Shown piece after piece: positions 8,713-41,748 of a stretch of 64,000 nt of DNA. The stretch is from positions 1,616 through 65,615 of the forward strand of contig CAUHSG010000007.1 of assembly GCA_959608885.1 (NCBI GenBank). Direction: 5' to 3'. The first letter of the stretch is position 1. Every line of letters begins with the position of its first letter. Under the pieces are notes generated by a model. The model searched no databases. It was not told the origin of the DNA and saw nothing but the letters and a program-made list of their open reading frames with translations. The position numbers were made by a program, and so were the translations under genes. Source of the DNA: an uncultured Coriobacteriia bacterium (GTDB lineage: Bacteria > Actinomycetota > Coriobacteriia > Coriobacteriales > QAMH01).

Positions 8713-8982
8713 TCATCTCTCGCGATTCTTCCCGCGCGCGACGGCGCCGGAGTACATGTTCACCCACGCGCCATCGCGTCGCTCGTAAAACGGCTTGAGC
8801 ACGATGTGCCCTCCGTGCGACCCCGAGCCGTGACACGCGATGACGCCTTCCTCGACGATGCCATCGAGCACGAAGACGTCAGCTTCCACCTCGTAGTAAC
8901 GACGACCATCGGAGCCCAGGAATGCTCCCGAGCTCCGATCGATGGCCACGACTGGTATTTCACGCAAACGGGCTTTTGCCAT
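8713..8982 (-). CDS. hypothetical 89-aa protein
   Basis: ORF packed 6 nt after the VOC stop and 9 nt before the slyD-like start. I recognise no motif. The coding call rests on operon packing only. Confidence 0.45.
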   Translation of the reverse strand: MAKARLREIPVVAIDRSSGAFLGSDGRRYYEVEADVFVLDGIVEEGVIACHGSGSHGGHIVLKPFYERRDGAWVNMYSGAVARGKNRER

Positions 8983-8988
8983 GCGAAT

Positions 8989-9528
8989 CTAGCGTCCCAT
9001 CATCGCCATGACGTCCTGAATGCCCACGAGGGCGACGTCATCCGGCCACTTCTGGTGCACGCCCATGCCCATCTGCCGCACTTGTTCGAGCGGCGGATTG
9101 ATCTCGATGTACTGCCCGAGCTGTTCGCGTGCGTCGACGTAGACCACGCGCATTCCGGAGCCCGAGACCATGTCCATGGCGACCTCGATGCCGGCAGCGG
9201 CAAATTCGTCGACTGTCTCCTGCACGTCGTCGACCCAGATGCAGTAGTGATGCAAGCCGTAACGCTCCGCCTCGGAGTACGGGCTCGGACAATCGCTCTT
9301 GTCCTCGATGAGCTCGATCTCCATGTCACCGAGGTACCCGATGGCCGTGCGCATCTTGACCGGTTGCTCGACGCCACGAATCTTGCAGCTCTCTGGGGCG
9401 TTCACACCCATGTCGATGAACGGACCGGCACCGAAGAGGTCGTGATACAGCTGTGCCGTCTCCTCGATACTCTCCACGTTATACCCGAGCTGTCTGATGC
9501 CGTATTTTCCGAAAAGCTCCTTGCCCAT
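8989..9528 (-). CDS. VOC family protein
   Basis: 179 aa with a glyoxalase/VOC-like layout (IRQLGYNVESIEETAQLYHDLFGAGPF, GLHHYCIWVDDV). Confidence 0.75.
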   Translation of the reverse strand: MGKELFGKYGIRQLGYNVESIEETAQLYHDLFGAGPFIDMGVNAPESCKIRGVEQPVKMRTAIGYLGDMEIELIEDKSDCPSPYSEAERYGLHHYCIWVDDVQETVDEFAAAGIEVAMDMVSGSGMRVVYVDAREQLGQYIEINPPLEQVRQMGMGVHQKWPDDVALVGIQDVMAMMGR

Positions 9529-25878: not shown

Positions 25879-27162
25879 TTACGAATCGCCTATCGCGAGT
25901 CCGTACGTGCGGCTTGTCTTCAGGTCAGTGACGATTTCGTTAGCGCGCACGATGAAGCGCGATGCGGTCTGCACCGCCTGCGGTCCGCAAATCTCGACAA
26001 GAAGCTGCGCATTGTTCCAGCAATCGCACAGCTCGCCGAGCTTATCCTGCACGGCCTTGGCGCGCATGTTGGTGCTACCGGCGTTGTCAGGCAGACAATC
26101 CGCAAGCTCGCGCGTCACGTAGCGCAGTGCCTTGGCCTGCTTGCGCACGTCATGCACGGACTCCTGATCGTCATAGTCGACGCGTGCCATCTCCGCCTCA
26201 TATGCCGCACGCATCTCGTTCACACGCTCGACAAGCTCGTCTGGCTCAAGACCGCACTGCCAGACAGACTTGCGCCACGGAAGCTCTTTGACGCGCTTGA
26301 CGATGCGCTTGAGCGAGCGCTGCGTTGCCTCGGAGCCAAATTGCTCGATGAACGCCTCGCGTTCTTCCGAGCACTCCGCGCGAACCATGCCGGCCTCGTC
26401 CGTTTGCGGATCGAGCGCGGCAAGCAACATGTCAAGCTCGCGAATACGCGAAGTGGGGTCCTGGAGCTTCTTGATCGCGCGCATCTCCCTCTTGAGGGCT
26501 CCGCGCTTGCAATGTGGCATGAGAAAGCCGAGTAGCGAACGCGTCACACGCAACGAGATGCGGTATTGATGAAGCGACTCGGGATCATCGGGATTCTCGA
26601 GCAGCTGCGCCGTACAACGCTCGATGCGCTTGACCGCGTCGGAAAGCCCGTCCTCCACGTTGACGAGAGTCTGCCAGTTCTCGGCACACGGGCCCTGCGC
26701 GAACCACTCCAGGCGAGCACCGGCCAGCGTCGCGACACCTCCGGTCTCGAACGCGAAGGCCGCCATCGCGCCTGGCTTCATGGACTGCAGCATGCCACCA
26801 AGCCGTCCGCATAGCTCCTCCATGAACGGATTGTGCCCCACGGCGATGACGCACCCCGTCTCTTCGACGAGTTCGGCCTCGAAGCGCTCGACATCCTGGG
26901 CGTAGAGCGACTCCTTGACCTCGATGCCATCGATGCCAAGCACGCGTGCGATGACCTCGGCCGTCTGCAACGCGCGCAGGGCCGGGCTACTCCAGACCTT
27001 CAGGTCTGCGACAGGGACATCCTCCACCAATCGCAGCGTCACGGGAAAGCGCGCCTCGATGCTGCGGCGACCCGCGCGCGTAAGCTGACGATCCCTATCG
27101 GCGAGCTCGAGAGCGTGTGTCTGCGTCTTGGCATGTCGCACGAGCACCAGCTTGGAAACCAT
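25879..27162 (-). CDS. SixA-type histidine phosphatase fused to CHAD domain
   Basis: N-terminus LVLVRHAKT...AVGHNPFMEE matches the phosphohistidine phosphatase SixA type. The C-terminal ~270 aa are helical and His/Arg-rich, like a CHAD domain (LHQYRISLRVTRSLL, VHDVRKQAKALRY). Confidence 0.7.
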   Translation of the reverse strand: MVSKLVLVRHAKTQTHALELADRDRQLTRAGRRSIEARFPVTLRLVEDVPVADLKVWSSPALRALQTAEVIARVLGIDGIEVKESLYAQDVERFEAELVEETGCVIAVGHNPFMEELCGRLGGMLQSMKPGAMAAFAFETGGVATLAGARLEWFAQGPCAENWQTLVNVEDGLSDAVKRIERCTAQLLENPDDPESLHQYRISLRVTRSLLGFLMPHCKRGALKREMRAIKKLQDPTSRIRELDMLLAALDPQTDEAGMVRAECSEEREAFIEQFGSEATQRSLKRIVKRVKELPWRKSVWQCGLEPDELVERVNEMRAAYEAEMARVDYDDQESVHDVRKQAKALRYVTRELADCLPDNAGSTNMRAKAVQDKLGELCDCWNNAQLLVEICGPQAVQTASRFIVRANEIVTDLKTSRTYGLAIGDS

Positions 27163-27609: not shown

Positions 27610-28839
27610 TTATAGCGTGAACTGCATGCCGTCTTCTGCCACGATGACGCGCCCATCGAACTGCTCGGCGTATCGGTATATCTCGTCGATCTCGTTCACG
27701 TTCGGCTCGCACATGTGCGGGGCGAGATGCGTGAGGTATACGTGGCCTGCATCGAGGATGTCAATGCCCTCGTGCACGGTCTGACGCACGTCATGGTGCG
27801 AACGAGCCGTACCGTGGTTCTCCCAGAAGGTCGAATCCATGACGAGATTGTCCACGCCCCTGAGAATCTCGATGACCTCTGGTTTGAGATCGCTCGTATC
27901 GGGTGCGTAGAAGGTGCGCCGTCCTTGCGGTGTCGTGATGAGATAGCCGAAGGTGCCAGGTGCGTGTCTGAGCGGCAGCGCCTGGATAGTCATTCCATCC
28001 ACCTCGCGTATGTCGTACTCACCCATCACGTCCAGAGCGAAGCAGTCGTCCATGTAGGCGTATTCCTTGAGCGTCTCGGCAATTGCGTAATCGCTCGCGT
28101 GGAAGGGCAGCGTGCCCATGAGATAGAGACGTATGTAGTACTCGAGCTCGCCCAAGCCACCCATGTGGTCGTAATGGGCATGGGTGAGGAAGAAGTCGTT
28201 GATGACGTCGATGCCCTCGCGATTGAGCTGATGGCGTACGTCGGGAGGGGCGTCAACGAGTGTCGTCCCGTGTCCTCGCAGGACGGCACCCGTGCAACCG
28301 CGGCGCTTGGCAGGATCCTTGCGTGCTGCCTCGCAAGCCGGACAATGGCAGAAAAACGCCGGCACGCCGCAACCGGAGCTCGTCCCCAAGAAGGTGAAGG
28401 TACGCTCGATGGGGAGCGAGCGGAACGGCAGCGGCCCGCAGTTGGCCTTGTCGGGACATGCGTCACACTCAGCGCGATACTCGGGAGCGATCGCGTCCCA
28501 ACCGCAGCGCTCGAAGCCGCAAGACAGGTAGAAGGGCTCGATCTCGCCGCGAGCGACCAAGCGCAGATCGGGATGCAGATGCAACGCGTCCTTGAGCAGC
28601 GCTCGTCCCACGCCCTTGCCCTGCACGACGTCGAAGACGACGATGGGGCGCACGTTCCACGAGCCATCGCTACCCTGCTCCAGGCGACAGGCTCCGTACA
28701 TCGTGTTGTCCGGCGTCACGGCGACACGCACGTTCTCGGGACTCTGCAAATCGCTAAAGCCCTCGACCGAAAACAGGTACCGGATGAGGTCCATATCCGC
28801 CTCGACGCAATCGCGGATATGGTATTCGGGTGCGATCAT
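27610..28839 (-). CDS. GNAT N-acetyltransferase fused to PhnP/PqqB-like MBL-fold hydrolase
   Basis: Start ATG 28839 overlaps the flavin reductase stop (ATGA). GNAT motif A is VVQGKGVGRALL. The MBL part has LGTSSGCGVPAFFCHCPAC and THAHYDHMGG. The Arg-rich N-terminal part of ORF 27610-29268 is rejected. Confidence 0.78.
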   Translation of the reverse strand: MIAPEYHIRDCVEADMDLIRYLFSVEGFSDLQSPENVRVAVTPDNTMYGACRLEQGSDGSWNVRPIVVFDVVQGKGVGRALLKDALHLHPDLRLVARGEIEPFYLSCGFERCGWDAIAPEYRAECDACPDKANCGPLPFRSLPIERTFTFLGTSSGCGVPAFFCHCPACEAARKDPAKRRGCTGAVLRGHGTTLVDAPPDVRHQLNREGIDVINDFFLTHAHYDHMGGLGELEYYIRLYLMGTLPFHASDYAIAETLKEYAYMDDCFALDVMGEYDIREVDGMTIQALPLRHAPGTFGYLITTPQGRRTFYAPDTSDLKPEVIEILRGVDNLVMDSTFWENHGTARSHHDVRQTVHEGIDILDAGHVYLTHLAPHMCEPNVNEIDEIYRYAEQFDGRVIVAEDGMQFTL

Positions 28840-29390
28840 GCGCTGAATCCTTTCTCGAAGTGCCCAAAGTGACCGCGCTGCCCCATGAGCAGCGCCGAAC
28901 ATGGCTCGAGCTTGCCGTTGCCATCGAGCTCGCCGCGCGTCTCGGCGACGAGTGTGCGCCCGATGAAGAGTTCGTGATCGCCATGCACTTGCGATTCCAC
29001 CAGCTCGCATTCTATCCACGAGATGGCCTGTCCGATACGGATGGCGTCGATGCGCGTAGCCGGAAGCGTCATGAGCCCCGCTTCGGCGAAGCGATCCTCG
29101 ACACCGTGCTTCTTGCCGCATGTCATCGCAACGCACACGGCATCCTCGTCGGCGCCGAGCACGTTCACGACGAAGCTTCCCGACTCGCGCATGGCACGCG
29201 CGGTCTGCCCGCCGGGACGAATGGCGACGGCGATGAGGCTCGGCTCGTGCGATATGGGCATGGCCCACGCAATGGTCGCGACCTTGTCAGCGCCCATGGC
29301 ATCACGTGCCGTAACAAGTGTCACGGTCGAGGGAATGAGCAACGTGGCGATCTCGTTGCCGGTAAGCTCGCTCAAGCTCTCGTCCATCAT
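28836..29390 (-). CDS. flavin reductase family protein (FMN-binding split barrel)
   Basis: 184 aa with blocks VTLVTARDAMGADKVATIAWAMPISHEPSLIAVAIRP and SGSFVVNVL. SD GGTAGGAG precedes the ATG. Confidence 0.8.
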   Translation of the reverse strand: MMDESLSELTGNEIATLLIPSTVTLVTARDAMGADKVATIAWAMPISHEPSLIAVAIRPGGQTARAMRESGSFVVNVLGADEDAVCVAMTCGKKHGVEDRFAEAGLMTLPATRIDAIRIGQAISWIECELVESQVHGDHELFIGRTLVAETRGELDGNGKLEPCSALLMGQRGHFGHFEKGFSA

Positions 29391-29511: not shown

Positions 29512-30492
29512 CTACATGATGGGCGGCACGTAAATCTTCATGCGGGACTGCGGGATGGCGCGCTTGGCGAGCTCCCGGCAACCCTCGACAATAGTATCGA
29601 GCCGGTTTGCCGGCACGCCCATGTACATCATATCCTCGCCGATATCGCTCGAGGCACGACCACCATAGCAGCCAAACGAGATGTTCGGCTCATCGTTCAT
29701 GAGCGGCAGCAGCGTTGCCTCCACGCATTGCGCATTGAAGCCCGACGCGTGGAAGTCGTGTCGATGCCCGTCGAAGTACGACATGCTCATCGACAGCCAC
29801 ATCATCTGCTCGGGTGTGCCCGTGAAGACGATGACCTCGGGATGGCGCGTGCATGCGCCAAGCGGTTGCACGAGGGTGGCGCGCTTGGAGTTGGGCGGTA
29901 ACGTGGGACGCTCAGCTACCATCTTGGCCGCGGCCTCGGCGTCCACGACCTTATGGAAGAGCACGTAGATCTCGCCGGTGGCAAGCTTGTCGGGCACGCC
30001 AGTCATACCGAAGATTGAGGTGCCATCAGGGCAGGCATGGCAATGCGGCGGCATGAGTATCGATGCACCGCGCCGCGCCGCGTTCATGCTCTGGCAATAG
30101 CGCAACTTCTCGGTGGGCATGGGTACGTCGGGCAGCGGCTCATCGATGTCGATGAGACCGACGGCCACCGGATGCCAGCGCAGGTCGAGCGCTTCCATGA
30201 TGGCCTTCTCCGCCTCGGCGTAATGACACTGCTCCTCGGCGCTGATAGGCTCGGCGCGTTCCTCGCCGGCATACGGGTCGAAGGCCTCGGCGCCGGGCAG
30301 CGACTTGATCACGATGGCGCGCTGCGGGCACTGGCCCGAGCAGGTCGTGCAGCCGACGCACGCCTCCATGTCGACGGCCTTCGGCATGCCGTTACCATTC
30401 ACCTCGAGACAGTACTGCGGGCAGAACGCCACGCATAGGCCGCAGGCAACGCAGCGATCCGCATCGTGTATGAACTCGTAGTCAGCGCTCAT
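29512..30492 (-). CDS. 4Fe-4S ferredoxin domain fused to DUF169 domain protein
   Basis: Ferredoxin motifs CVACGLCVAFCP and CVGCTTCSGQCP at the N-terminus. The remaining ~250 aa resemble DUF169 (COG2043) proteins (RYCQS..., GCYGGR...). Confidence 0.65.
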   Translation of the reverse strand: MSADYEFIHDADRCVACGLCVAFCPQYCLEVNGNGMPKAVDMEACVGCTTCSGQCPQRAIVIKSLPGAEAFDPYAGEERAEPISAEEQCHYAEAEKAIMEALDLRWHPVAVGLIDIDEPLPDVPMPTEKLRYCQSMNAARRGASILMPPHCHACPDGTSIFGMTGVPDKLATGEIYVLFHKVVDAEAAAKMVAERPTLPPNSKRATLVQPLGACTRHPEVIVFTGTPEQMMWLSMSMSYFDGHRHDFHASGFNAQCVEATLLPLMNDEPNISFGCYGGRASSDIGEDMMYMGVPANRLDTIVEGCRELAKRAIPQSRMKIYVPPIM

Positions 30493-30510
30493 GGGCTGCT
30501 CCTTGTCGCA

Positions 30511-31818
30511 TTAGGCAGTGGGGCCGGTTCCCCACATCTCGTAGATACGCTCACCGGCGGAATTCGTCATCTGGTAGCTGCAAAACGGAATCACGCGCCC
30601 GTCCTTCATCGCCACCGTCATCGAGCATTCCGCCATGCGCTCGGTCGTTGTCGTCATCGCGTCCATGTAGTTCATGATGATGACGCTGATGCCGCGATAG
30701 AGGTTGACGCCCTTTTTGTAGAGGATGTCGGGCAGCACCGAGCCCTGTGGGGATGTCGGGTCGTAGTACTGCATGTACTCCTCGCTCGACAGGCCGCGCG
30801 TGGCCGGGATATAACCGCCGTTTTCATCCGGCATGAGGAAGGTGCCCGTGTCGCACAGCGGATGCGAGCACCCGAGCGGCATGATGTCTGCGACCTTGAT
30901 GCGCCCATCGGTCTGCTCCTCGAGCGCGTAGATGGTGTCGCCGGCCGTGTACGGCGCGTACTCGCTCGGCTCGAAGCGCCCCGAAGTGAACGCGGGCTGC
31001 AGCGCAACGCCAATCACCACATCGGAGTTCTCCCAGGCAAAGTCGATGACCTCGCCGACGCGATCGTCGTTCACGCCCTTGACGATGGTCATGCACAGCA
31101 CGACCTGAATGCCCACCTCGCGGCAGTTCTCGATGCATGCCATCTTGTCAGCGAGCATCGCGGCCTTGCCGCATATGGCCTCATAGGGCTCCTCGTCAAT
31201 GCCATCGAAAGAGAGGTAGATGCCGGTGATGCCCGCATCGACAAGCTCCTGCAGGTACTTCTTCGAACGACCGATGACGATGCCGTTCGTGTTGATCTCG
31301 ATGCCGGTGAAGCCGTGGCGACGCGCGCACATGACGATCTCGGGCAGGTCGCTGCGCACCGTGGGCTCGCCGCCGGTAATCTGCAATCCCGTTTCGGGGC
31401 CAACCTTCTCGGCGAGCGTGGCGATGAGCCCCTCGATCTCGCCGAAGGTGATGCCATCGCTCGGGAAGTCGGCGCTCATGAAGCACACGGGGCACTTCGC
31501 GTTGCAACGGCGCGTGACCTCGATTTCCACCAAAGTGCCACGGCGTAGATGGCGCTTGCACAACCCGCAACTCTTGGGGCATTCGTCGTCGATGGGATAG
31601 TCGCGGCACTTGGGAGCCGTCGGCGCGACGCGCATCGAACGCAGCCACTCGTAGTGCTCGGCATCTGGCCACACGTAGGTGACGGTCTCGCCGTGCTCGG
31701 GGCACGTGCGCGTCATCCAGACCTTGCCGTCGCCGTCCGCGTAGATATCCGCCTTCAGCTGCGTCAGGCAATGTGGGCACAGCGCATGCGCCGTATGGAG
31801 AGTTCGAATTTTAGTCAT
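30511..31818 (-). CDS. radical SAM protein, COG1964 (MJ0619/Tes-like) type
   Basis: N-terminal Zn-ribbon-like CPHC...CPEHG. Radical SAM motif CNAKCPVC, GGEP block ITGGEPT, long C-terminal extension. Confidence 0.8.
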   Translation of the reverse strand: MTKIRTLHTAHALCPHCLTQLKADIYADGDGKVWMTRTCPEHGETVTYVWPDAEHYEWLRSMRVAPTAPKCRDYPIDDECPKSCGLCKRHLRRGTLVEIEVTRRCNAKCPVCFMSADFPSDGITFGEIEGLIATLAEKVGPETGLQITGGEPTVRSDLPEIVMCARRHGFTGIEINTNGIVIGRSKKYLQELVDAGITGIYLSFDGIDEEPYEAICGKAAMLADKMACIENCREVGIQVVLCMTIVKGVNDDRVGEVIDFAWENSDVVIGVALQPAFTSGRFEPSEYAPYTAGDTIYALEEQTDGRIKVADIMPLGCSHPLCDTGTFLMPDENGGYIPATRGLSSEEYMQYYDPTSPQGSVLPDILYKKGVNLYRGISVIIMNYMDAMTTTTERMAECSMTVAMKDGRVIPFCSYQMTNSAGERIYEMWGTGPTA

Positions 31819-31851
31819 AGGTCACCTTATAAAAGTCCTTTTACCTACGAA

Positions 31852-32033
31852 GGTAGCTCTTTTTTCAAACAATTGCGAAGCAGGAAATGCTTTTCGCGAG
31901 GCGTCCTTGCGAGGACTGTCTGAGCGGGCGGTTTCTGCCCGCGAGTTTCCCTAAAGGGACTAGCTTCGCGTCGCCGCACGCAGCCGAGCGAAAAGCATTG
32001 ACGGGTGCGGAGCCTGTTTGAAAAAGAGCTACC
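31852..32033. mobile_element. MITE-like nonautonomous element with 19-20-bp terminal inverted repeats
   Basis: GGTAGCTCTTTTTTCAAACA (31852-31871) pairs with TGTTTGAAAAAGAGCTACC (32015-32033). The interior is a nest of sub-palindromes with no ORF. A 38-nt internal segment recurs inverted at 15333-15370. Confidence 0.6.
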
Positions 32034-32952
32034 GAAGTATCCCTTCGGTCTCCTCCGGCTCGTGCGCAGGTGCGTCGGCGCCGTCCTCCACGTCATCCAG
32101 ATACTGACGCGGATCGTGGTTCTCGTTGGGCGCGGCATGCGGCTTGAGCCCGAGGAAGTCGGCCCATTGCAGGACGCGCTTGGGCACGTAAATGCCCGTC
32201 TGATACTCCGATGCCGTGCGCAGCGCACGAGCGCACGACAGGCAGTGCGCCAGGTCCTCGACCTCGTCAACATCAGCGACAGGTGCGAGGTACGCGTTGG
32301 GGATGCCCTCCTCGACAAGTTTCTCGACGTATCCGTCGAGCGCGGGCCTGCCGGTCATGTTGTAGTAGATGCCCTGGTGGTTGATAGGCGTGTCGAAGTT
32401 GAAACCCACGAGCGAGGTGCCACACTCCTGGCACGGTGCCTGCACGAAGCCGGGCGTGCCAAGCACCTCAGCGAAGTAGATGAGCCACTGAAATGCCTGG
32501 GTCACATGTGCGCGCGGCAACGTCGGGATATCGGCGCCGATGGAGACGATTGCCTCGTAACCCTGGTCGAAAATCTCCTTAAACGCCATGTCGAAGTGAT
32601 CGTCGAAGGTGGCACCGCGGTCGTGCATGTAGTGAATCTCGCGCGGCCACTGTCCGATTTCCTCGATCGTCTCCTTCATGAGGGCGACATTCTTCTCTGG
32701 CGTCGTCGAGATGAAGAGGTCGTAGCTGCGCTCCGGCGCGCTCGGGTCGGCCTCGCGCTCCTCGCGATTCAGCGCCTCGAGATCGTCCATGCACCACATC
32801 GCAAGCTCGGTCACATCCCACAGGCTACGCTTGAAGAACTGGGCCGCTTGCTCCTGCGTGAAGCCGCCACCACGTTCGATGGTGAGACGCGTCTTGACCA
32901 GACCTGGAATCGGCGGCTTGGAGAAGATGAGAATCGCGTATTTCTTCTGCAT
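32029..32952 (-). CDS. DUF2064 family protein (MobA/CofC-like nucleotidyltransferase fold)
   Basis: Start ATG 32952 (MQKKYAILIFSKPPIPGLVKTRL...) follows AAGGAG and lies 5 nt after the Mo-enzyme stop. The N-terminal block is typical of DUF2064/TIGR04282-type proteins as I recall them. Confidence 0.65.
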   Translation of the reverse strand: MQKKYAILIFSKPPIPGLVKTRLTIERGGGFTQEQAAQFFKRSLWDVTELAMWCMDDLEALNREEREADPSAPERSYDLFISTTPEKNVALMKETIEEIGQWPREIHYMHDRGATFDDHFDMAFKEIFDQGYEAIVSIGADIPTLPRAHVTQAFQWLIYFAEVLGTPGFVQAPCQECGTSLVGFNFDTPINHQGIYYNMTGRPALDGYVEKLVEEGIPNAYLAPVADVDEVEDLAHCLSCARALRTASEYQTGIYVPKRVLQWADFLGLKPHAAPNENHDPRQYLDDVEDGADAPAHEPEETEGILR

Positions 32953-32957
32953 GGGTG

Positions 32958-35177
32958 CTACTCCTTCTTTCTGATGCGGCAGGGAATGCCGTTGTAAATC
33001 CACGTCCCGATAAGCGGCTCGCGCGCGCCTTCGACGGCACCGCGTGTGAGCCAGTTGATGTTCGATTTGAGACACTCGTCAAAATCGGGGCTGTCCTCGA
33101 CCGATTCAGGGTACCACCATCCATATTCGGCGGAGGCCACGTCGTCAAGCATGTTCGCGATATGCACGTATTGGAGCACCTCAACGTCCGGCGCATCCTG
33201 GCGCGAGATGAGGCAGGCATCCCCCTCCGCAAGACCCAGGCGCTCGGCCGTCGCGGGTGAGAGCTCGACCGTCGGCTTGGGATGGCGAGCGCGCATCGAG
33301 GGAACCTCGAAATACGAGGATGCCCAGTATGGCTGCTTGCGCGCGCCGGTAATGAGCGTGACGCAATCATCCTCGTGACACACGTCCTCGTGCACACCGG
33401 TCACGGGCGTGAACTGCGCGACAAGCCCGGCACCGCGGCGCTGCAGGAACGGGACGGCGAGTTCGACCTTGCCGCTCTCGGTCGCAAAACCGCGCGGCTC
33501 GCCTGTTACCTCGTCAATCTCGAGATGCTTGAGGTAACGCGCTCCACCACCGCAGATGCCCGTGATGATGAAATCGTCCCAACTCATGCCCGTCGGCTCG
33601 ATGGTGCGGGCGAGTTCCTCGGTCAGGTCCTGAGCCGGCCACAGCGCCTCATCACAGCCCATGCGCAGAGCCAAATCGCGCAGGATGACATAGTCCTCAC
33701 GGCGCTCGAACTGCGGCTCGACCGCAGCCGGTCCGCCATAGCAGAAGTCCGAGACACCGCCCATCGCCTGAAAGCAGGGGTGCTCGACAGCTGCGGCAGC
33801 GGGCAAAACGTAGTCGGCCATGAGGGCCGTGGGTGTCATGATGAACTCAAGCACGACGACGAGATCCATCGCCTCGAGTGCCCGCATAACAAGCTGCGTA
33901 TCGGCATAGGTGACCAGTGGATTGGCGCCATCGACGATGAGTGCGCTCACGCGATAGGGTTTGTCCGTGATGGCCGCTTCCCACACGCGTTGCGGCAACG
34001 CCGAGGTGAGATATCGCATGGGCAGATGACGTCCCAGCTTGCCGGTGCGCTCGTCGGCGAGTTCCCAACCGGCATAACTCTGGAGGCCGCAATCAGGCTC
34101 GTTGAGGCCATGAGCACGAGCCTCGGCAGACAACAGCATGCTGTCCTCGAGCTCGAGCTCGCTCAGGAAGCTCGGTGCCTCGTTGAGAACGTTACCGCCG
34201 GGCACGTCGACATTGCCCGTGATGGCGCGCAACGCGGCGATGACACGATGCAGCGATGCGGTGTTGGGGCCGATCTGGTCGACACCGCGTCCCGAAAGCA
34301 GACCGGCGGGCTTGCTCGTCGCGTACATGCGGGCAGCCTCGCGAATCTGCTCGACGGACACTTGGGTGATAGCGGCCGCCTCGTCGAGCGTGCGCTCGAA
34401 AGCAGCGGCCTTGAACTCGTCGAAGCCGGAGCACCACTCATCGACGAAGTCATGGTCGTAGAGATCCTCCTCGATGATGACGCGCGCGAGCGCGTACGCG
34501 AGAACGAGATCAGTACCGGGAAAGGGCGCGAGCCACAGCGTCGCCTTGGCCGCCGTCATCGACAGGCGCGTGTCCACGACGATGAGCTTACCGCCATCGC
34601 GAGCGTAGTCGGCGATGTTGCGCCAGAACAGCGAGTTGTCCGACTCAGCCGGATTGATACCCCAGAGCATCAGGCACTCCGTGAGGTCGGGCCGGAAGTC
34701 GCATTCGACCGACCAACCGTAGGTCATCGTGTCCATCCAGATGCGCGGATTCCAGCAGATGGGACCGATGCCCATGTTGTTGGGGCTGCCGATGAAGCTC
34801 ATGAAGCGATGCAACGGCCAGTAAACCGCATGCGGACCACCAATGGCACTCGCCACCGTCCACGGACCATGTGCGTCGATGAGCAGGCGCAAACGCGTCG
34901 CGATATCGTCAAGCGCCTCGTCCCAGCTCACGCGGATAAAACCGCCGCCGCCACGCGGCCCTATGCGCTTCAGGGGAAAGTTGACGCGCGTATCCTCGTC
35001 ATAGAGCTTCTCGAGATTGAGCCGCCAACGGGGACAGCGGGCAGATACGCTCACATCGTAGGGATAGCGCGTCGCATCAGGCGTGAAGTCGATTACGCGG
35101 CCGTCTTCGATCGTCGCGTCGAACGCGCATAGATAGCCGCAGTAGTGACAATTGGTTTTACGAATCTCGGTAGTCAT
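32958..35177 (-). CDS. molybdopterin (bis-MGD) oxidoreductase, cytoplasmic, unknown substrate
   Basis: FS0 motif NCHYCGYLC...C near the N-terminus. DMSO-reductase-family blocks are present (VSWDEALDDIA, GINPAESD, LVVVLEFIMTPTALMADYVLP). No Tat/Sec signal. Start is uncertain: ATG 35177 (MTTEIRK) or 35201. Confidence 0.85.
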   Translation of the reverse strand: MTTEIRKTNCHYCGYLCAFDATIEDGRVIDFTPDATRYPYDVSVSARCPRWRLNLEKLYDEDTRVNFPLKRIGPRGGGGFIRVSWDEALDDIATRLRLLIDAHGPWTVASAIGGPHAVYWPLHRFMSFIGSPNNMGIGPICWNPRIWMDTMTYGWSVECDFRPDLTECLMLWGINPAESDNSLFWRNIADYARDGGKLIVVDTRLSMTAAKATLWLAPFPGTDLVLAYALARVIIEEDLYDHDFVDEWCSGFDEFKAAAFERTLDEAAAITQVSVEQIREAARMYATSKPAGLLSGRGVDQIGPNTASLHRVIAALRAITGNVDVPGGNVLNEAPSFLSELELEDSMLLSAEARAHGLNEPDCGLQSYAGWELADERTGKLGRHLPMRYLTSALPQRVWEAAITDKPYRVSALIVDGANPLVTYADTQLVMRALEAMDLVVVLEFIMTPTALMADYVLPAAAAVEHPCFQAMGGVSDFCYGGPAAVEPQFERREDYVILRDLALRMGCDEALWPAQDLTEELARTIEPTGMSWDDFIITGICGGGARYLKHLEIDEVTGEPRGFATESGKVELAVPFLQRRGAGLVAQFTPVTGVHEDVCHEDDCVTLITGARKQPYWASSYFEVPSMRARHPKPTVELSPATAERLGLAEGDACLISRQDAPDVEVLQYVHIANMLDDVASAEYGWWYPESVEDSPDFDECLKSNINWLTRGAVEGAREPLIGTWIYNGIPCRIRKKE

Positions 35178-35281
35178 AGCCCATGATTGTACTGCATGCA
35201 TCGGGCAAACACGCGCACTCTCCGGTTACAACACGGCACCGGCAAACAAAGTGGTTACCCGCCATGAGACAGTTGCCGTCA

Positions 35282-35337: not shown

Positions 35338-36492
35338 TCAGTCGACGAGCGTCAACTCCTCACTCTCCGAAAGCTCCGCATATGCCGGGTCGGCAAAGAG
35401 CGCATCGACGTTCGCGTACACCTGCCCCCAATCGACGGAGCAATCAAAGATTTGCTCGAGGTAATGCTGCACAGGCGTGCTTCCCACACCACGCTGCAAC
35501 GAGTTGACACACGAGAAACAGGTCGACAGCACGCGGTCCGCATCGACTCCGTCGATTTCGGCAAGACGCAGGTTGCGGCGATACGCACAATAATCGGGAG
35601 CGTACACGCTCACCATGCCGCCACCTCCGCAACACAGACAGTCACGTTTCTCGTGCGGCATGCTCTTGAATGTCGCGTTCTCAAATAAACTGCGTGCCGC
35701 ACTGCCAAAGAAACCAGCAGAGCGGTCGTAACACGCATCGTGAAATGTGATGGCCTCGGTGCTCTGCGATATCATGCCGCGCTCGACGAGCAAATCGGGT
35801 AGCCGTACGATCTCGATCTCCATCCCCTCGATGAGCTGTGGCAGCAGATGGCCGCAGTGTGGACAGGTCACGACCAGGCGCCCGATTTCCTTCTCACGCA
35901 AAAAGGCCTGCACGCGCTCGCGATAGGCATCGTATTCGGCATAGAAGCCGACATCATAGAAAGTCGCGCCGCAACAGATGAGCAGCGTGTAGGCGGCAAT
36001 GTCCTCATCACGCAACCATTGCGAAACCTTGGCGGTAAGTTCGGGCGCATATGCATATAGCGCACAACCCGGGAAAAATGCGGTGTGATCGGCATCGCCA
36101 CCCAGATTCGCCTCGCCCTGGATATAGGTGACGTTCGTGATGTCACCGGTGTCACGGGCGCGCAGCGACGAAAACACGTTGTGCTTGAGATCCGTCCTGA
36201 ACTTGCGGTACAGGGGCCTCAGCTCGGGCTTCTTCTCGAGCAGCAATGCCCTGAGCGGTTTGGTAGCACGAGAGGCGACCAGGTCGACCGGGCAGTTAAT
36301 CGTACAGCGATTGCACAGCGCGCACGTGAAGGGTGCGTAATCCCAGGTATCGTCCCCGTTGAGAATCGACTCGCACAGCTCACCGAGATTAGGCTCGCCA
36401 TTCGAGAAGTTACCGCAGTCGGTCTGGGCGCACAGGCCGCAACGGATGCAGCTGTCGGAAAAGTCCTGCACGTCTTCCAGCGGATGATGCAT
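35338..36492 (-). CDS. HdrD/GlpC-like iron-sulfur protein (2x 4Fe-4S ferredoxin + 2x CCG domains)
   Basis: Ferredoxin motifs CIRCGLCAQTDC and CALCNRCTINCP. Two CCG-type patterns: PGC...LICCG...CPHCG and DAC...CLCCGGGG...CFSC. Confidence 0.8.
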   Translation of the reverse strand: MHHPLEDVQDFSDSCIRCGLCAQTDCGNFSNGEPNLGELCESILNGDDTWDYAPFTCALCNRCTINCPVDLVASRATKPLRALLLEKKPELRPLYRKFRTDLKHNVFSSLRARDTGDITNVTYIQGEANLGGDADHTAFFPGCALYAYAPELTAKVSQWLRDEDIAAYTLLICCGATFYDVGFYAEYDAYRERVQAFLREKEIGRLVVTCPHCGHLLPQLIEGMEIEIVRLPDLLVERGMISQSTEAITFHDACYDRSAGFFGSAARSLFENATFKSMPHEKRDCLCCGGGGMVSVYAPDYCAYRRNLRLAEIDGVDADRVLSTCFSCVNSLQRGVGSTPVQHYLEQIFDCSVDWGQVYANVDALFADPAYAELSESEELTLVD

Positions 36493-36985: not shown

Positions 36986-38077
36986 CTACTGAGCGCCGGT
37001 CATGGCAGGATTGGGGCCGGAGGTCTGGTAGACCTCGTCCGGACCGTCGGCAGGAGCCTCGTCGGCAACCTCACCAGCGGGCGTAACCCACGTCCAGTAC
37101 TCCCTGCCGGTCTCCCAGTAGTCCATGAAGTCCTGATGACTCTGAGGCAGACGCGTGTAGTACTTGAGCTCGCCCGGGGTGACGCGGCGCTGATAGCTCC
37201 AGATAATCATGAAGCGCAGCAGGCAGCCACCCATGAGAGCGATGAGCGCGGATGCGTAGCCGCCCACGTTGGTGACGTTGAGCAGCAGCGGAATAACCAG
37301 ACCGCAGCAGACCATCAGGCCCCAGAAGTAGCCGGCCCACTCGCCACGAACCCAGCGCTCGGCATGGGCCTTGGCGGTCTCGTTGGAAGCGCAGAACTGC
37401 AGCATCACGTAGAGCAGCAGCACGACGAGCTCGAGCGAGATGAGAATCGCGTCAGCGACATGCAAGATGTGACGCAGCTCCTCGGTGAGCAGCGCGGCAA
37501 GCGGCGTAGACAGGTTGACCTGCAGCCACTCGGCCGGGAAGGGCCAAACGCCGATGCACATGGAGAGCAGGGCCGCACCGGTGGAGCAGCCGGACACCAT
37601 GAAGAGCACGGGCAGAACCGGCGTGTTCCAGAACGGACGGGACTTCATGCTGGAGAGCAGTACGCCCGTGTAGATCGTGACGCACAGGCCGAAGATACCG
37701 GCAATGCCGAGCAGCACCTGCGCAAAGCCCTCATACGGAATGAAGGGCAGACCGGTGAGCCAGGAGAGCTCCCAGAAGATGAAGAGCACGCCTGCGATCA
37801 TCGAGATGGAGAGGAACACAGCACCCCACTTGATAACCGAGGTCCTCGTCACGAAGGCACGGTAGAAAATCCACGGCTGACCAAGCTCGAAGACGAGCAG
37901 GCCGGTGCCAATGCCCAGGATGAGGAAGGCGATGAAGACGCCCCACACGAGGGCACCGCTCGTCAGAGCGGATGGCGCGATGATCAATCCGACAACGGCG
38001 GCGGTCGCCATCATGCCGCCACCAAGGCCGCCCAGGAAGAGGTAGAGGGCAATCGGCCAAATCCAGAACTGCTTCAC
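36986..38077 (-). CDS. NrfD/PsrC-like polytopic membrane anchor subunit
   Basis: 363 aa. N-terminal WIWPIALYLFLGGLGGG is typical of the NrfD family, with 8 or more hydrophobic helices. A polar ~70-aa C-terminal tail is present. The start overlaps the FeS subunit stop (38074-38077). Confidence 0.82.
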   Translation of the reverse strand: MKQFWIWPIALYLFLGGLGGGMMATAAVVGLIIAPSALTSGALVWGVFIAFLILGIGTGLLVFELGQPWIFYRAFVTRTSVIKWGAVFLSISMIAGVLFIFWELSWLTGLPFIPYEGFAQVLLGIAGIFGLCVTIYTGVLLSSMKSRPFWNTPVLPVLFMVSGCSTGAALLSMCIGVWPFPAEWLQVNLSTPLAALLTEELRHILHVADAILISLELVVLLLYVMLQFCASNETAKAHAERWVRGEWAGYFWGLMVCCGLVIPLLLNVTNVGGYASALIALMGGCLLRFMIIWSYQRRVTPGELKYYTRLPQSHQDFMDYWETGREYWTWVTPAGEVADEAPADGPDEVYQTSGPNPAMTGAQ

Positions 38078-38637
38078 TGTACCGTACCTCCTAAGTCGGG
38101 AATGTAGTAGATCATGGGCTCGGTACCAACCTCAGGATAGACCTGCTCGGTGTAGTACGAGTTGACGAGCTTCGAGACCTCGCTGTTGGGATCGTCAAGG
38201 TCGCCGAAGGTACGGGCCTTCTGATGGCACGTCATGACGCAGAAGGGCTGCTCGCCCTCGCGGACGCGATCCTTGCAGAAGGTGCACTTGCGGATGTAGC
38301 CCTCATGCTCGTTCATGTCGCGAGCGCCATAGGGGCAGGCATTCGCGCAGACCTTGCAGCCCATGCACTGGGAAGGCTCAACCCACACGATGCCGTCGTC
38401 GTCCTGACGCGAGGCGCCAGTCGGGCAAGCGGGCACGCAGGCGGGCTTGTCGCAATGCATGCAGATGAGCGGTTGGAAGGTCATGTGGACATGAGGCCAC
38501 ACGCCCTCTGCTCCGTTGGAAACAACAGGATTGTAGATGATGTCAATGGGCAGCTCGTTCCAGGTGCGGCATGCGATGGTGCATGAGGAGCAACCAATGC
38601 AACGACGCTGATCCATAACCATTGCGTAACGGGTCAT
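38074..38637 (-). CDS. 4Fe-4S dicluster subunit (DmsB/PsrB-like)
   Basis: 187 aa with CIGCSSCTIAC, CMHCDKPACVPAC, CMGCKVCANAC and CTFC motifs. No signal peptide. Confidence 0.88.
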   Translation of the reverse strand: MTRYAMVMDQRRCIGCSSCTIACRTWNELPIDIIYNPVVSNGAEGVWPHVHMTFQPLICMHCDKPACVPACPTGASRQDDDGIVWVEPSQCMGCKVCANACPYGARDMNEHEGYIRKCTFCKDRVREGEQPFCVMTCHQKARTFGDLDDPNSEVSKLVNSYYTEQVYPEVGTEPMIYYIPDLGGTVQ

Positions 38638-38653
38638 TTCAGTCCTCCTCTCC

Positions 38654-41527
38654 TTATTTGTTCAAGTCAGCCAGGCTGCAGGGGGCATCAACAGGTTGCA
38701 TGGAGAAGTCGTACCATGCGTTGTTCGCCTCGTCGACCAGGTAGTTGCCCTGACCATACTGGACGAAGCGATAGCCCGTGCCTGCCTGATAGTGGATGGA
38801 GGTGGTCGGATCGATCATCCAGCCACTGCCAGTGTCGTAATAGCGACCCTTGTCATCCTCGGCCTTGAGCGTGATGGGATTCCACGTCGTGCCGGCAGGC
38901 AGCTCGAAGTCGGCCTGCGGGCCCTCGGAAGGCTGCATCGAGAAGTCGTAGAACGTGCCCGTGGCCTCGTCGAGCAGGAAGTCGCCGTTGTGGGAGACGT
39001 ACCTGTAGCCCGTGCCCATCTGGTAGAAGGTGCCCGTGGCGTCGTCGACCATCCAGCCGGAGGCCTGGTCGTAGCGGCGGCCGTTCTCGTCGTAGCACGC
39101 GCGCTTGCGGTAATCCCAGGTGAGACCCTCGGGAACCTCGAAGTCGGGTTGCGCGAAGACGGGCTCGGCAAACTCGAGAGCCATCTTCTGGGTGCTCGGC
39201 ATGGCATGCACGCCGGGGCCCTCGGTGGCAAACGCAGAGCCGGGGATGGAGAACTCGCAGTCGCGCTCGGTGAATTGGTAGTCGATGTCGGTGCACTTGT
39301 ACACCTTGCACATCAGGCCACGGTTCGCCCAGCAACCGGTCAGCGGGTCGCAGTGCTCGTCATCGACGGACGTGAGCACGTTGGTGTTGGACTCGAGGCA
39401 ACCGAAGGGCTCGGGGCCTTCGGGGCTACGCTCGGGGAACCACCAGCCGCGCTGCGTGTAGACCGCGCGCGGATCGATGCCCGGCTCGACGTTGGCGCGC
39501 ATCTTGATGCGGCCGCGACGGGTCTCGATCCAGCACCAATCGCCCATCTCGATGCCCAGCGTGACAGCGAGGTCGGGGTGGATGGTGAAGTACGGATCGG
39601 GCTTGATGTAGCGGATGATCGGGTTGTTGAAGTGCTCCGAGTGATGGAACGGCATGAAACCGCCGCCCGTGGTGAGCACGATGGGGTACTCGGCTGCGAC
39701 CTCGGGATCGTCGACCTCGTTCTCGGCCGGACCGATGTACTTCGGGAAGGCCGGCAGACCGAACTCCTCGAAGACCGAGCACTTGAGCTCGACCTTGCCC
39801 GACGCGGTGCAGAACTGGCCCTTCTGCAGGTACTTCTGGTACTGCAGCGGCGGATAGTACATGCGGAAGCGAGCGACGAAGTCGTTGTAGTCCGTGATGG
39901 GAAGACCAAGCGGCGAGAGAACGTGGAAGTACGCGTCCTCGAGCTCCGGCCAGGGCCAGTCCTCTTCGGTCTGACCGCAGGCAAGGCCCAGGTCCTTCCA
40001 GATGTTGTAGTCGGTCTTGCGCTCGTACATCGGCCAAATGGCGCGCTCGGAGCAGACGATGGAGTCGGTGACACCGTAGTTGGTGTGAACCATCGGTCGC
40101 TCCATGGCACCGGCAACCGGCAGCACGAAGTCGGCCATGAGGGCCGTCGGGGTCATGAAGTACTCGAGGACGACCAGGAACTCGACCTGCTTGCAGGCCT
40201 CGAAGACCATCTTCGCGTCGCCGTAGGACGAAAGCGGATTGGAGCCGCTGACGAACAGCGCGCGAACCTGATACGGATCGCCCGTGAGAATGGCCTTGAA
40301 GACGGACGGGCCATGGGCCTCGCACATCCACTCGGCGGTGAACGCCTTGCCCCACTTGTCCTTGGAGATCTGGGAGAGACGCTCGTAGCCGGGCCAGGAG
40401 GTCATCTTGTACTTGTCGGAGCCGATCTGCTTGGCACGCATCTCGACGGGCAGACGGTCGTTGGCCTCGAGCTCCTCGTCAGTGACGTAAGCCGCGGGAC
40501 CGGGCATGCCGTCGCCGCCGGGGCAGTCGAGGTTGCCGCAGATGGCACGCAGGATCGAACGGGCGTGCATGCCGGCACCAGCCGTGCGGCCGAGCTGATC
40601 CCAGGTGCAACCCCACTGGATGTTGCCGGGGCGGTTGGTCGCGTACATGCGAGCCGCCTGGCGGATGAGCTCGGGATCGAGCCAGGTGAGGGGCGCAGCC
40701 CACTCCGGGGTGTAGGGCTCGATGTAATCGCGGAGCTCGTCGAAGCCCTCGCACCACTCGTCAACAAAGTCCATGTCATAGATGAACTCGTTCATGATGA
40801 CGTTGATCATGGCCATGGACAGAGCCGTATCCGAACCCGGACGCAGCGGCAGCCAGAGGTCGGCGTGCGCGGCGGTCTCGGAGTAGCGCGGATCGACGAC
40901 GATGAGCTTCAGGCCGTTTGCGCGCTGCAGGTCGGTGTAGCCGTGCATGCCGGGCATGGACGACGCACCGGGGTTGAAGCCCCACAGGATGACGCACTTG
41001 GATGCGCCAAGGTCGGTCTCGAACGGGGACCAACCGTTGATGGCGGTCTCGACCATGAAGGTCGGAATCCAGCACAGCAGGGCGTTGTGGAAGCCGTTGG
41101 GCGTTCCGAACAGGTTGAGGAAGCGACGCCTCGCCCAGTCATCGGTACGCAGGGTACCGGCGGCTGCGGCGACTGCCTCTGCACCGGACTCTTCCTTGAT
41201 CTGGTTGATCTTGGCGGCAATCTCGGTCAGGGCCTGATCCCAGGAGACACGCTCCCACTTGTTCTCGCCCTTCTCGCCCGCGCGCTTCATCGGGTAGTTG
41301 ATGCGCGACGGATTGTCCACGAACGTGTAGGCCTGGTTACCACGAGTGCACAGGCCACCAGCGTTGGTGGGATGATCCGGATCGCCTTCGGCGTAGATGA
41401 GCTTACCGTCCTTGACGTAAGCCAGAACGCCGCAGTTCTGATGGCAGAAATAGCAGCATGACTTCTTGACCTCCACGCCTTCTGCGTGGATTTCATCCAA
41501 CCATTTCGTCGATGAATAGTCTCTCAC
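38654..41527 (-). CDS. molybdopterin oxidoreductase catalytic subunit with C-terminal tandem repeat
   Basis: FS0 motif CCYFCHQNCG...C. DMSO-reductase-family blocks are present (VSWDQALTEIA, GFNPGASS, VVLEYFMTPTALMADFVLP). Start placed at GTG 41527, which follows GAAGGAGGAGG; the ORF-track GTG 41557 has no SD. No Tat signal with either start. Confidence 0.85.
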   Translation of the reverse strand: MRDYSSTKWLDEIHAEGVEVKKSCCYFCHQNCGVLAYVKDGKLIYAEGDPDHPTNAGGLCTRGNQAYTFVDNPSRINYPMKRAGEKGENKWERVSWDQALTEIAAKINQIKEESGAEAVAAAAGTLRTDDWARRRFLNLFGTPNGFHNALLCWIPTFMVETAINGWSPFETDLGASKCVILWGFNPGASSMPGMHGYTDLQRANGLKLIVVDPRYSETAAHADLWLPLRPGSDTALSMAMINVIMNEFIYDMDFVDEWCEGFDELRDYIEPYTPEWAAPLTWLDPELIRQAARMYATNRPGNIQWGCTWDQLGRTAGAGMHARSILRAICGNLDCPGGDGMPGPAAYVTDEELEANDRLPVEMRAKQIGSDKYKMTSWPGYERLSQISKDKWGKAFTAEWMCEAHGPSVFKAILTGDPYQVRALFVSGSNPLSSYGDAKMVFEACKQVEFLVVLEYFMTPTALMADFVLPVAGAMERPMVHTNYGVTDSIVCSERAIWPMYERKTDYNIWKDLGLACGQTEEDWPWPELEDAYFHVLSPLGLPITDYNDFVARFRMYYPPLQYQKYLQKGQFCTASGKVELKCSVFEEFGLPAFPKYIGPAENEVDDPEVAAEYPIVLTTGGGFMPFHHSEHFNNPIIRYIKPDPYFTIHPDLAVTLGIEMGDWCWIETRRGRIKMRANVEPGIDPRAVYTQRGWWFPERSPEGPEPFGCLESNTNVLTSVDDEHCDPLTGCWANRGLMCKVYKCTDIDYQFTERDCEFSIPGSAFATEGPGVHAMPSTQKMALEFAEPVFAQPDFEVPEGLTWDYRKRACYDENGRRYDQASGWMVDDATGTFYQMGTGYRYVSHNGDFLLDEATGTFYDFSMQPSEGPQADFELPAGTTWNPITLKAEDDKGRYYDTGSGWMIDPTTSIHYQAGTGYRFVQYGQGNYLVDEANNAWYDFSMQPVDAPCSLADLNK

Positions 41528-41748
41528 TCTGCCTCCTCCTTCATTCTCTCTTGCCACATGTTTGCATTACCTGCTTTCCGCAGACCATGCAGTCATGCGG
41601 AACACCTCCTGCGAAGACGTTGCCATCCTCGCACGTCAACGCTGTCTGCCGGCATATTCGCGCCCATCCGATGAGTGGGCATGGCAATGTCGACGTCTAA
41701 CGTCTAACTTCCGTATTAAATCACGGGATGAAGGTTATGTGAAGCTAT

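Follow-up and report, generated by a model that had tools for sequence, protein, structure and literature searches.

Tes-like radical SAM enzymes couple two unactivated sp3 carbons via an intermediate bound to an iron-sulfur cluster, and this reaction ranks among the hardest in biology. To our knowledge, lipid synthases are the only Tes-like radical SAM enzymes that have been characterized. The zinc-ribbon-type motif of one of them, the archaeal tetraether synthase GDGT-MAS (MJ0619), has been given as C9X2C12X20C33X2H36 (PMC9433317). The closest catalogued system to the locus reported here is the TrsS cassette, which stands beside aldehyde oxidoreductases (the DVU_1551-1557 neighborhood) and contains the radical SAM (seleno)protein TrsS (NCBIfam NF045646), a name given in Haft and Tolstoy 2025 as cited in PMC13188914. 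TrsS itself can be a selenoprotein.

The DNA analyzed comes from an uncultured Coriobacteriia bacterium (GCA_959608885.1, contig CAUHSG010000007.1, positions 1,616 to 65,615, forward strand). The whole stretch of 64,000 nucleotides is called the window, and all features described below lie on its minus strand. We examined a gene pair encoding a radical SAM enzyme (rSAM) and a ferredoxin::DUF169 fusion (Fdx::DUF169). In our judgment, there is an even chance that this pair is part of a cassette, conserved in Coriobacteriia but not described before, that serves cytoplasmic molybdoenzymes in an accessory role.

Domains and metal sites of the radical SAM enzyme

The rSAM gene (P0001; 435 amino acids; positions 30511 to 31818), assigned by Pfam, NCBIfam, and a match to PDB 7tol_A, ends with a TAA stop codon. 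The gene for the fusion (P0002; 326 amino acids; positions 29512 to 30492), recognized by Pfam DUF169 and Fer4 families, follows after a spacer of 18 nt with AAGGAG ahead of its ATG. Both open reading frames have the lengths given in the initial annotation, and the motifs named there were located: CPHC...CPEHG corresponds to C14, C17, C39, and H42 of rSAM and CNAKCPVC to C105, C109, and C112, while the two CxxCxxCxxxCP ferredoxin motifs of the fusion fall at C14-C24 and C45-C55.

Pfam recognizes Zn_ribbon_HMPTM (E 1e-14) and Radical_SAM (E 8e-26) in rSAM and no SPASM/twitch C-terminal domain. The match to GDGT-MAS (PDB 7tol_A) has an E value of 7.7e-77 over residues 12-321, with the C-terminal motifs in addition, and all four metallocofactor sites of GDGT-MAS are kept in the same order. 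The N-terminal rubredoxin-like zinc ribbon, C14-X2-C17-X21-C39-X2-H42 (positions 31669 to 31800; PF23545 at residues 7-50), is invariant in alignments A1 and A4. It is followed by the N-terminal auxiliary [4Fe-4S] ligands C80, C84, C87, and H90 (positions 31549 to 31581), which are invariant in A4 and aligned to C73/C77/C80 and a His of GDGT-MAS, and by the radical SAM core with C105-X3-C109-X2-C112 (positions 31036 to 31524; PF04055 at residues 99-261). [quoted passage not shown] These Pfam, NCBIfam, and 7tol matches agree with the earlier placement of rSAM in the MJ0619/Tes-like branch. Assignment to the SPASM/anSME maturases was rejected, as the SPASM families match nothing but the radical SAM core and score far below their cut-offs. 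A literature search found no characterized actinobacterial member of this branch.

With every metal site kept and strong overall similarity to GDGT-MAS, a true Tes-like function, i.e., a bacterial synthase of membrane-spanning lipids, might be considered, and in the tree described below the rSAM clade also lies closer to representatives with Tes scores than to TrsS verified by context. However, rSAM scores 315.4 bits against the Tes model (NF045702), below the curated cut-off of 450. Its C-terminal domain is about 41 residues shorter than that of GDGT-MAS, with 24 residues (350-374) standing opposite 65 in 7tol (386-451), the C terminus is also shorter, and the whole protein is about 70 residues shorter. 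This bacterial enzyme is encoded among molybdoenzyme genes, with which, and not with lipid genes, it is strictly coinherited. Membership in Tes was rejected on the score; the shortened C-terminal domain and the gene context also count against a lipid synthase, which we regard as highly improbable.

Relationship to TrsS and its cassettes

The nearest full-length relatives of rSAM are TrsS proteins (33-37% identity), and the short architecture is common to both; the initial annotation had left out TrsS as the nearest catalogued relative. In a FastTree phylogeny rooted at the midpoint, rSAM falls in a separate clade confined to Coriobacteriia, with 100% local support. It scores 333.9 bits against the TrsS model, compared to a cut-off of 490 and to 504-607 for true TrsS members. 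The Cys-Cys/Cys-Sec motif of the TrsS C-terminal domain (GCC/SCC/DCC), present in the expected region of 40 of the 73 TrsS sequences, is absent from the rSAM clade in the alignment. The window and the orthologous loci hold none of the DVU_1553, DVU_1555, and DVU_1556 families and no aldehyde oxidoreductase; the CCG protein alone is common to the two systems. TrsS membership of rSAM was rejected on the score, the missing motif, and the missing DVU_1553/1555/1556 neighborhood.

Among the TrsS loci with full flanks (n = 52), a molybdenum aldehyde oxidoreductase was present in 46, a CCG-containing FeS flavoprotein in 50, and a MocA-like nucleotidyltransferase in 36, and in two TrsS loci a bis-MGD enzyme replaces the aldehyde oxidoreductase. 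This branch of radical SAM enzymes thus repeatedly accompanies cytoplasmic molybdoenzymes. Both kinds of cassette contain a cytoplasmic molybdoenzyme, a CCG FeS protein, a protein of nucleotidyltransferase fold, and a histidine phosphatase. However, the molybdoenzyme is of the bis-MGD type in the rSAM cassette and of the xanthine-oxidase type in TrsS cassettes, and the partners also differ: rSAM is accompanied by Fdx::DUF169, DUF2064, and GNAT proteins, whereas TrsS is accompanied by an ArsM-like methyltransferase, a C-GCAxxG-C-C protein, and a CoA-ligase-like enzyme. DUF169 is absent from the TrsS cassettes. One genome (G030) carries both systems.

The cassette and its inheritance

The initial annotation had placed DUF2064 and a molybdoenzyme on one side of the pair and phospho-ester enzymes on the other. 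These flanks were borne out, the molybdoenzyme being a molybdopterin oxidoreductase, while the nine-gene molybdoenzyme cassette around the pair had been missed. The cassette is headed by a three-subunit, NrfD-anchored molybdoenzyme (967-residue catalytic subunit, Mo967, with 4Fe-4S and NrfD subunits; positions 36986 to 41557; Pfam and NCBIfam), a unit that is conserved in this place and in which no Tat signal was found. An HdrD-like CCG-domain iron-sulfur protein follows (positions 35338 to 36492; PF02754); it is kept in all orthologous loci, and NCBIfam matches it best to diclust_near_Sec, a TrsS-cassette component, over that family's CCG part. The next gene encodes Mo747, a signal-less molybdoenzyme of the bis-MGD family (747 amino acids; positions 32958 to 35201; Pfam), in which no twin-arginine leader was found. 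The likely start of the DUF2064 gene (positions 32029 to 33075; PF09837; nucleotidyltransferase-like fold, PDB 3cgx) overlaps the 3' end of the Mo747 gene, and DUF2064 lies upstream of rSAM in every locus examined. Beyond the pair are genes for a flavin reductase (positions 28836 to 29390; Pfam), a GNAT::PhnP-like MBL fusion (positions 27610 to 28839; Pfam), and a SixA-like histidine phosphatase::CHAD fusion (positions 25879 to 27162; Pfam/NCBIfam). GNAT comes after Fdx::DUF169 in every locus, and the SixA-like fusion is kept solely within the genus in our sample.

The gene order Mo967-4Fe4S-NrfD-CCG-Mo747-DUF2064-rSAM-Fdx::DUF169-GNAT was found in seven of seven orthologous loci from four families. 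Of 401 Coriobacteriia genomes, the same 15 (9 genera) hold rSAM, the full-length fusion, and the Mo747 ortholog, and rSAM and the fusion are adjacent in 13 of these. Since rSAM belongs to the Tes-like branch and the pairing recurs in 15 genomes, neither a SPASM-type assignment nor an unconserved pairing describes this locus. The order breaks in two genomes: in one (G302) the cassette is split between rSAM and Fdx::DUF169, and in the other (G208) it is interrupted by 8.3 kb. In both, the fusion stays with GNAT and rSAM stays with DUF2064-Mo747, so rSAM and the fusion need not be translationally coupled. The carriers are gut Coriobacteriia, Gordonibacter included, and the cassette is not mentioned in the literature that we found on DVU1559 and on Gordonibacter. 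The coinheritance fits a role in molybdoenzyme maturation and a role in another step of the same pathway alike.

The translational link of DUF2064 to Mo747, with long open frames in several genomes that suggest occasional fusion, would suit a role in cofactor supply to the signal-less molybdoenzyme, with DUF2064, rSAM, Fdx::DUF169, and GNAT as the machinery that builds or modifies its pyranopterin or another organic cofactor. In one genome, a MobA-like transferase lies between DUF2064 and rSAM. The TrsS cassettes are rich in genes of Moco maturation (XdhC-like, MocA-like, MoeA, and MOSC), and the two molybdoenzyme families that occur with them are unrelated in structure but have the pterin cofactor in common. 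However, no known cofactor modification needs such an enzyme, and relatives of Mo967, as weak paralog matches only, occur in many genomes that lack the cassette. Of the activities that the initial annotation had cited for this branch, the pterin-methylase activity claimed for MJ0619 was left uncorroborated by those who solved the structure of GDGT-MAS, and the pocket is hydrophobic (PMC9433317). The reading of rSAM as a pterin methylase was rejected on this ground, and cofactor modification in general appears improbable.

The sole NCBIfam match of DUF2064 is to the arsenosugar-associated TIGR04282, and the rSAM cassette of G030 has an insertion of an ArsS-like radical SAM gene (Radical_SAM plus DUF3641), with another such gene in the TrsS locus L067. 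Together with the ArsM-like methyltransferase of the TrsS cassettes and the occurrence of TrsS as a selenoprotein, this could be taken to mean that an organo-arsenic or organo-selenium compound is what the cassette acts on, the molybdoenzymes serving as reductases or oxidases. However, DUF2064 scores 60 bits where TIGR04282 has its cut-off at 134, and the ArsS-like gene was present in just 1 of the 10 cassettes inspected. There are no ars genes, the rSAM and Fdx::DUF169 genes have no Sec codon, and rSAM is without the CC/CU motif. We consider such metalloid chemistry very unlikely.

The ferredoxin::DUF169 fusion

The N-terminal part of the fusion is a 2x[4Fe-4S] ferredoxin domain (C14/17/20/24-P and C45/48/51/55-P; positions 30307 to 30471; Pfam Fer4 families), which in the predicted model matches ferredoxins with Z scores of 8-10.6. 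The remainder is a DUF169 domain (positions 29581 to 30201) matched by PF02596 over profile positions 2-209 of 209 (E 4e-51; 174.2 bits against a gathering score of 27). The fusion is a clear member of the DUF169 family (PF02596, COG2043), but one joined to a dicluster ferredoxin. The domain comprises about 230 conserved residues with near-invariant C133, C154, and C256 (alignments A3 and A5), and this Cys triad is nearly invariant across paralogs of 16-27% identity, including standalone ones.

Modeled alone, the DUF169 domain reached an AF2 pLDDT of 89.7. Foldseek gave no match of this model to solved folds at E <= 0.001, and the best match in a wide structural search (VIA), to TYW3-like proteins, was at noise level (Z 4.7). 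A profile search of PDB sequences with DUF169 gave nothing at E <= 1, a search of the ESM Atlas returned DUF169 clusters alone, and with the model of the whole fusion only the ferredoxin domain was matched by Foldseek and VIA.

Our search for orthologs of Fdx::DUF169 found them confined to Coriobacteriia, and in our sample the fused subfamily occurs solely together with rSAM and Mo747. The other DUF169 proteins of Coriobacteriia are standalone proteins encoded behind OsmF-type ABC transporter operons, with neither rSAM nor a molybdoenzyme. DUF169 is therefore not intrinsically a partner of rSAM. A literature search found no paper linking DUF169 to radical SAM enzymes.

An electron-donor role for the fusion is plausible, and the pair might be a dedicated one in which Fdx::DUF169 mainly reduces the [4Fe-4S] cluster of rSAM. 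The ferredoxin would then be the donor, and DUF169 would serve for docking or for electron input, perhaps from the flavin reductase that follows in some loci. The ferredoxin domain is canonical, the spacer carries a ribosome-binding site, and the fusion co-occurs with rSAM in all 15 genomes, immediately downstream in 13. However, in the split cassettes the fusion goes with GNAT rather than rSAM; rSAM, like GDGT-MAS, already has a surface rubredoxin-like domain and an N-terminal cluster domain; and its TrsS relatives have no such partner. The conservation of DUF169, with its own Cys triad, as a domain that stands alone elsewhere also argues against this. We therefore regard a dedicated donor pair as possible but unlikely.

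Proposed role and implications

Under our preferred reading, an accessory cassette of cytoplasmic molybdoenzymes, the retention of all four GDGT-MAS metallocofactor sites in a shortened relative leads us to infer that rSAM would cleave SAM and, by its likeness to GDGT-MAS, abstract hydrogen from an unactivated carbon. The substrate radical may then be captured by the C-terminal cluster, in which the Met ligand is exchangeable, so that a C-C or C-S bond forms. We expect a substrate smaller than a pair of lipid tails; it may be the substrate of Mo747 or a precursor of something that Mo747 needs. Fdx::DUF169 could take part in the same process as a second, redox-wired component, with electrons passing through its two [4Fe-4S] clusters to or from the Cys-triad site in DUF169, and the GNAT acyltransferase would probably be its closest working partner. 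Counted against the accessory-cassette reading are the split in G302, the interruption in G208, the DUF169-free TrsS cassettes, and the standalone DUF169 paralogs.

The locus shows that a bacterial clade keeps a complete Tes-like catalytic apparatus, which is inherited with a cytoplasmic molybdoenzyme and a ferredoxin-wired DUF169 protein. A bolder proposal, which we think improbable, is that rSAM, Fdx::DUF169, DUF2064, and GNAT install a new pyranopterin modification, or synthesize a small organic cofactor of a new kind, required by this class of cytoplasmic molybdoenzymes, with the TrsS cassettes as the parallel for aldehyde oxidoreductases. The reaction of rSAM, once known, would give DUF169 a first function and would explain the role of the related, widespread TrsS cassettes for molybdenum enzymes. 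It may represent a novel transformation or cofactor in gut anaerobes that are noted for metabolizing drugs and polyphenols.

The gene pair and its surroundings

The radical SAM enzyme (435 aa) is encoded on the minus strand at positions 30511 to 31818 and ends in a TAA stop codon, and the 326-aa ferredoxin::DUF169 fusion (Fdx::DUF169) follows on the same strand at 29512 to 30492 with an ATG start. The spacer between the TAA and the ATG is 18 bases long and contains AAGGAG. These coordinates, sizes, and gap agree with the initial annotation. A DUF2064 gene and a molybdopterin oxidoreductase gene lie upstream of the pair, and a flavin reductase, a GNAT::PhnP-like metallo-hydrolase, and a SixA-like phosphatase::CHAD fusion are encoded downstream; gene and domain assignment confirmed the flanks described previously, a molybdoenzyme with DUF2064 on one side and phospho-ester enzymes on the other. 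Pfam placed an HMPTM-type zinc ribbon at residues 7 to 50 of the radical SAM enzyme and the radical SAM core at residues 99 to 261. The proposed fusion of two 4Fe-4S motifs to DUF169 was likewise recovered by Pfam, with DUF169 at full length (174 bits). The gap between the DUF2064 and radical SAM genes (31819 to 32028) is 210 nt, whereas in G090, a sister genome, it is only about 30 nt (DUF2064 end at 8969 and radical SAM start at 9002 of locus L019). This difference fits the insertion of a palindrome-rich element noted in the first reading at 31852 to 32033.

Family and metal sites of the radical SAM enzyme

The top NCBIfam matches were TrsS, a radical SAM (seleno)protein family found beside molybdenum aldehyde oxidoreductases (334 bits), and the tetraether synthase Tes (315 bits). 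Both scores are below the respective cutoffs of 490 and 450 bits, and the enzyme is thus not a curated member of either family. The closest solved structure was the tetraether synthase GDGT-MAS (MJ0619, 7tol; E value, 7.7e-77), in support of the suggested placement in the Tes-like branch. The alternative of a SPASM/anSME-type maturase was not borne out, as no SPASM domain was found in Pfam and NCBIfam searches.

In GDGT-MAS, metal is bound at four sites: iron in a rubredoxin-like CX2CX20CX2H motif, a [4Fe-4S] cluster in the N-terminal part with three Cys ligands and one His ligand, the cluster bound by CX3CX2C, and a cluster in the C-terminal part that has a labile Met among its ligands (PMC9433317). 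The structure paper could not corroborate the earlier assignment of MJ0619 as a pterin methylase (PMC9433317). Every GDGT-MAS metal ligand has an aligned counterpart in the radical SAM enzyme (C14/C17/C39/H42, C80/C84/C87/H90, C105/C109/C112, and C322/C398/C413 with M382), and these residues are invariant in its clade and in TrsS relatives. The retention of this apparatus argues for a predicted chemistry in which a C-H bond is activated by a radical mechanism and a cluster assists in forming the new bond. However, the enzyme is shorter than GDGT-MAS, with residues 350 to 374 opposite 65 residues of 7tol, and the shortened C-terminal domain together with the genomic context argues against a lipid as the probable substrate.

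Every named close homologue (49 to 97% identity) comes from the Coriobacteriia, namely, from Eggerthellaceae, Raoultibacter, or Coriobacteriales MAGs, and the whole clade falls into one cluster when library sequences are grouped at 50% identity. The next full-length relatives outside this cluster are TrsS proteins with 33 to 37% identity, but the CC/CU motif of TrsS is absent from the clade. In a FastTree tree with midpoint rooting only, the clade is long-stemmed with 100% support, falls outside context-verified TrsS, and adjoins Tes-scoring and unclassified representatives.

Conservation and co-inheritance of the cassette

Seven orthologous loci from four families share one gene order, which runs from Mo967 (the 967-aa catalytic subunit of an NrfD-anchored molybdoenzyme) through a 4Fe-4S subunit, NrfD, one or two CCG proteins, Mo747 (a 747-aa bis-MGD-family molybdoenzyme), DUF2064, the radical SAM enzyme, and Fdx::DUF169 to GNAT. 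Neither Mo967 nor Mo747 has a twin-arginine leader. Among 401 sampled genomes of the class Coriobacteriia, a radical SAM orthologue was present in 15 genomes (9 genera), and full-length Fdx::DUF169 and Mo747 orthologues were present in the identical 15; DUF169 genes in the remaining genomes were only standalone and lower scoring. In 13 of the 15 genomes the two genes are next to each other on one strand; the pairing is conserved. The three genes are strictly co-inherited and their order is fixed, which indicates that the pair and the signal-less molybdoenzyme Mo747 belong to a single predicted functional unit.

The cassette is split in the other two genomes. In G208 (L132), the two genes are 8.3 kb apart, with another molybdoenzyme gene in the interval, and in G302 (L130 and L131) they are located mid-contig on different 150-kb contigs. 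In both cases the radical SAM gene is kept with DUF2064 and Mo747, and Fdx::DUF169 is kept with GNAT or GNAT::MBL (a metallo-hydrolase domain), the latter together with Fdx::DUF169 on one contig in G302. The open frames across the Mo747 match are 900 to 1,126 aa in several genomes (G194, G208, G044, and G302), consistent with a putative Mo747-DUF2064 fusion; the G302 frame contains one in-frame TGA.

The DUF169 domain

Full-length Fdx::DUF169 relatives are from Coriobacteriia, including Gordonibacter species. The structural model was confident for the whole protein (pLDDT, 87.7) and for the DUF169 domain alone (89.7). The ferredoxin domain matched many ferredoxins. No solved relative of the DUF169 domain emerged: Foldseek had no match at an E value of ≤0.001, the best Z in a VIA search was only 4.7, and a profile search was negative. 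C133, C154, and C256 are near-invariant among DUF169 paralogues of only 16 to 27% identity. It is possible that Fdx::DUF169 is a simple electron donor. The joining of a dicluster ferredoxin to a domain that carries a conserved Cys triad suggests that DUF169 is a redox-dependent component in its own right and more than a docking piece. That the fusion gene consistently stays linked to GNAT, and not to the radical SAM gene, is in keeping with this view.

Standalone paralogues in other Coriobacteriia (L124, L126, L127, and L128) are the last genes of operons for OsmF/ProVW-type ABC transporters, which belong to the betaine/choline family. A second, standalone DUF169 gene in the window's own genome (L122, 6954 to 7802; G000:C3) neighbors genes for a LuxR-type regulator, MFS transporters, and an amidohydrolase.

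Comparison with TrsS cassettes

TrsS is an already catalogued family; for the present cassette, a literature search found no published account. The comparison drew on 80 TrsS loci (L027 to L106) that span many phyla, 52 of them with full flanks. These 52 encode a CoA-ligase-like enzyme (51 loci), a flavoprotein with two clusters and CCG domains (50), a molybdenum aldehyde oxidoreductase (46), a C-GCAxxG-C-C protein (45), an ArsM-like methyltransferase (41), an XdhC-like factor (39), a MocA-like nucleotidyltransferase (36), and a CobC-like phosphatase (29). The DUF169, DUF2064, and GNAT genes of the present cassette were found in none of the TrsS loci examined. In-frame stops in 5 of the 80 TrsS matches may be selenocysteine codons.

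In two TrsS loci (L067, 5497 to 7926; L076, 16542 to 18674), the xanthine-oxidase-family aldehyde oxidoreductase is replaced by a bis-MGD enzyme with about 31% identity to Mo747. In L067 the enzyme includes a fused 2Fe-2S domain and an FAD subunit is encoded ahead of it; this locus also encodes MoeA, MOSC, and, adjoining them, an ArsS-like radical SAM protein 47% identical to that of G030. The coriobacterial genome G030 carries a complete canonical TrsS/aldehyde oxidoreductase cassette (L026, G030:C1) as well as the present cassette, and neither system therefore simply replaces the other. In G030, the present cassette has two extra genes (L024, 6556 to 7830 and 10476 to 11216), with a MobA-like NTP transferase separating DUF2064 from the radical SAM gene and the ArsS-like protein (Radical_SAM plus DUF3641) between Fdx::DUF169 and GNAT. 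The DUF2064 match and the occasional ArsS-like genes are weak hints of a link to metalloid chemistry.

A role of the cassette in cofactor or enzyme maturation and a further step in a shared metabolic pathway both fit and cannot be distinguished here. Cytoplasmic molybdoenzymes occur in both the TrsS and the present systems, as do an iron-sulfur protein of the CCG type and a protein with a nucleotidyltransferase fold, whereas all other partners differ. From these gene contents, this branch of radical SAM enzymes is repeatedly tied to those three kinds of protein.
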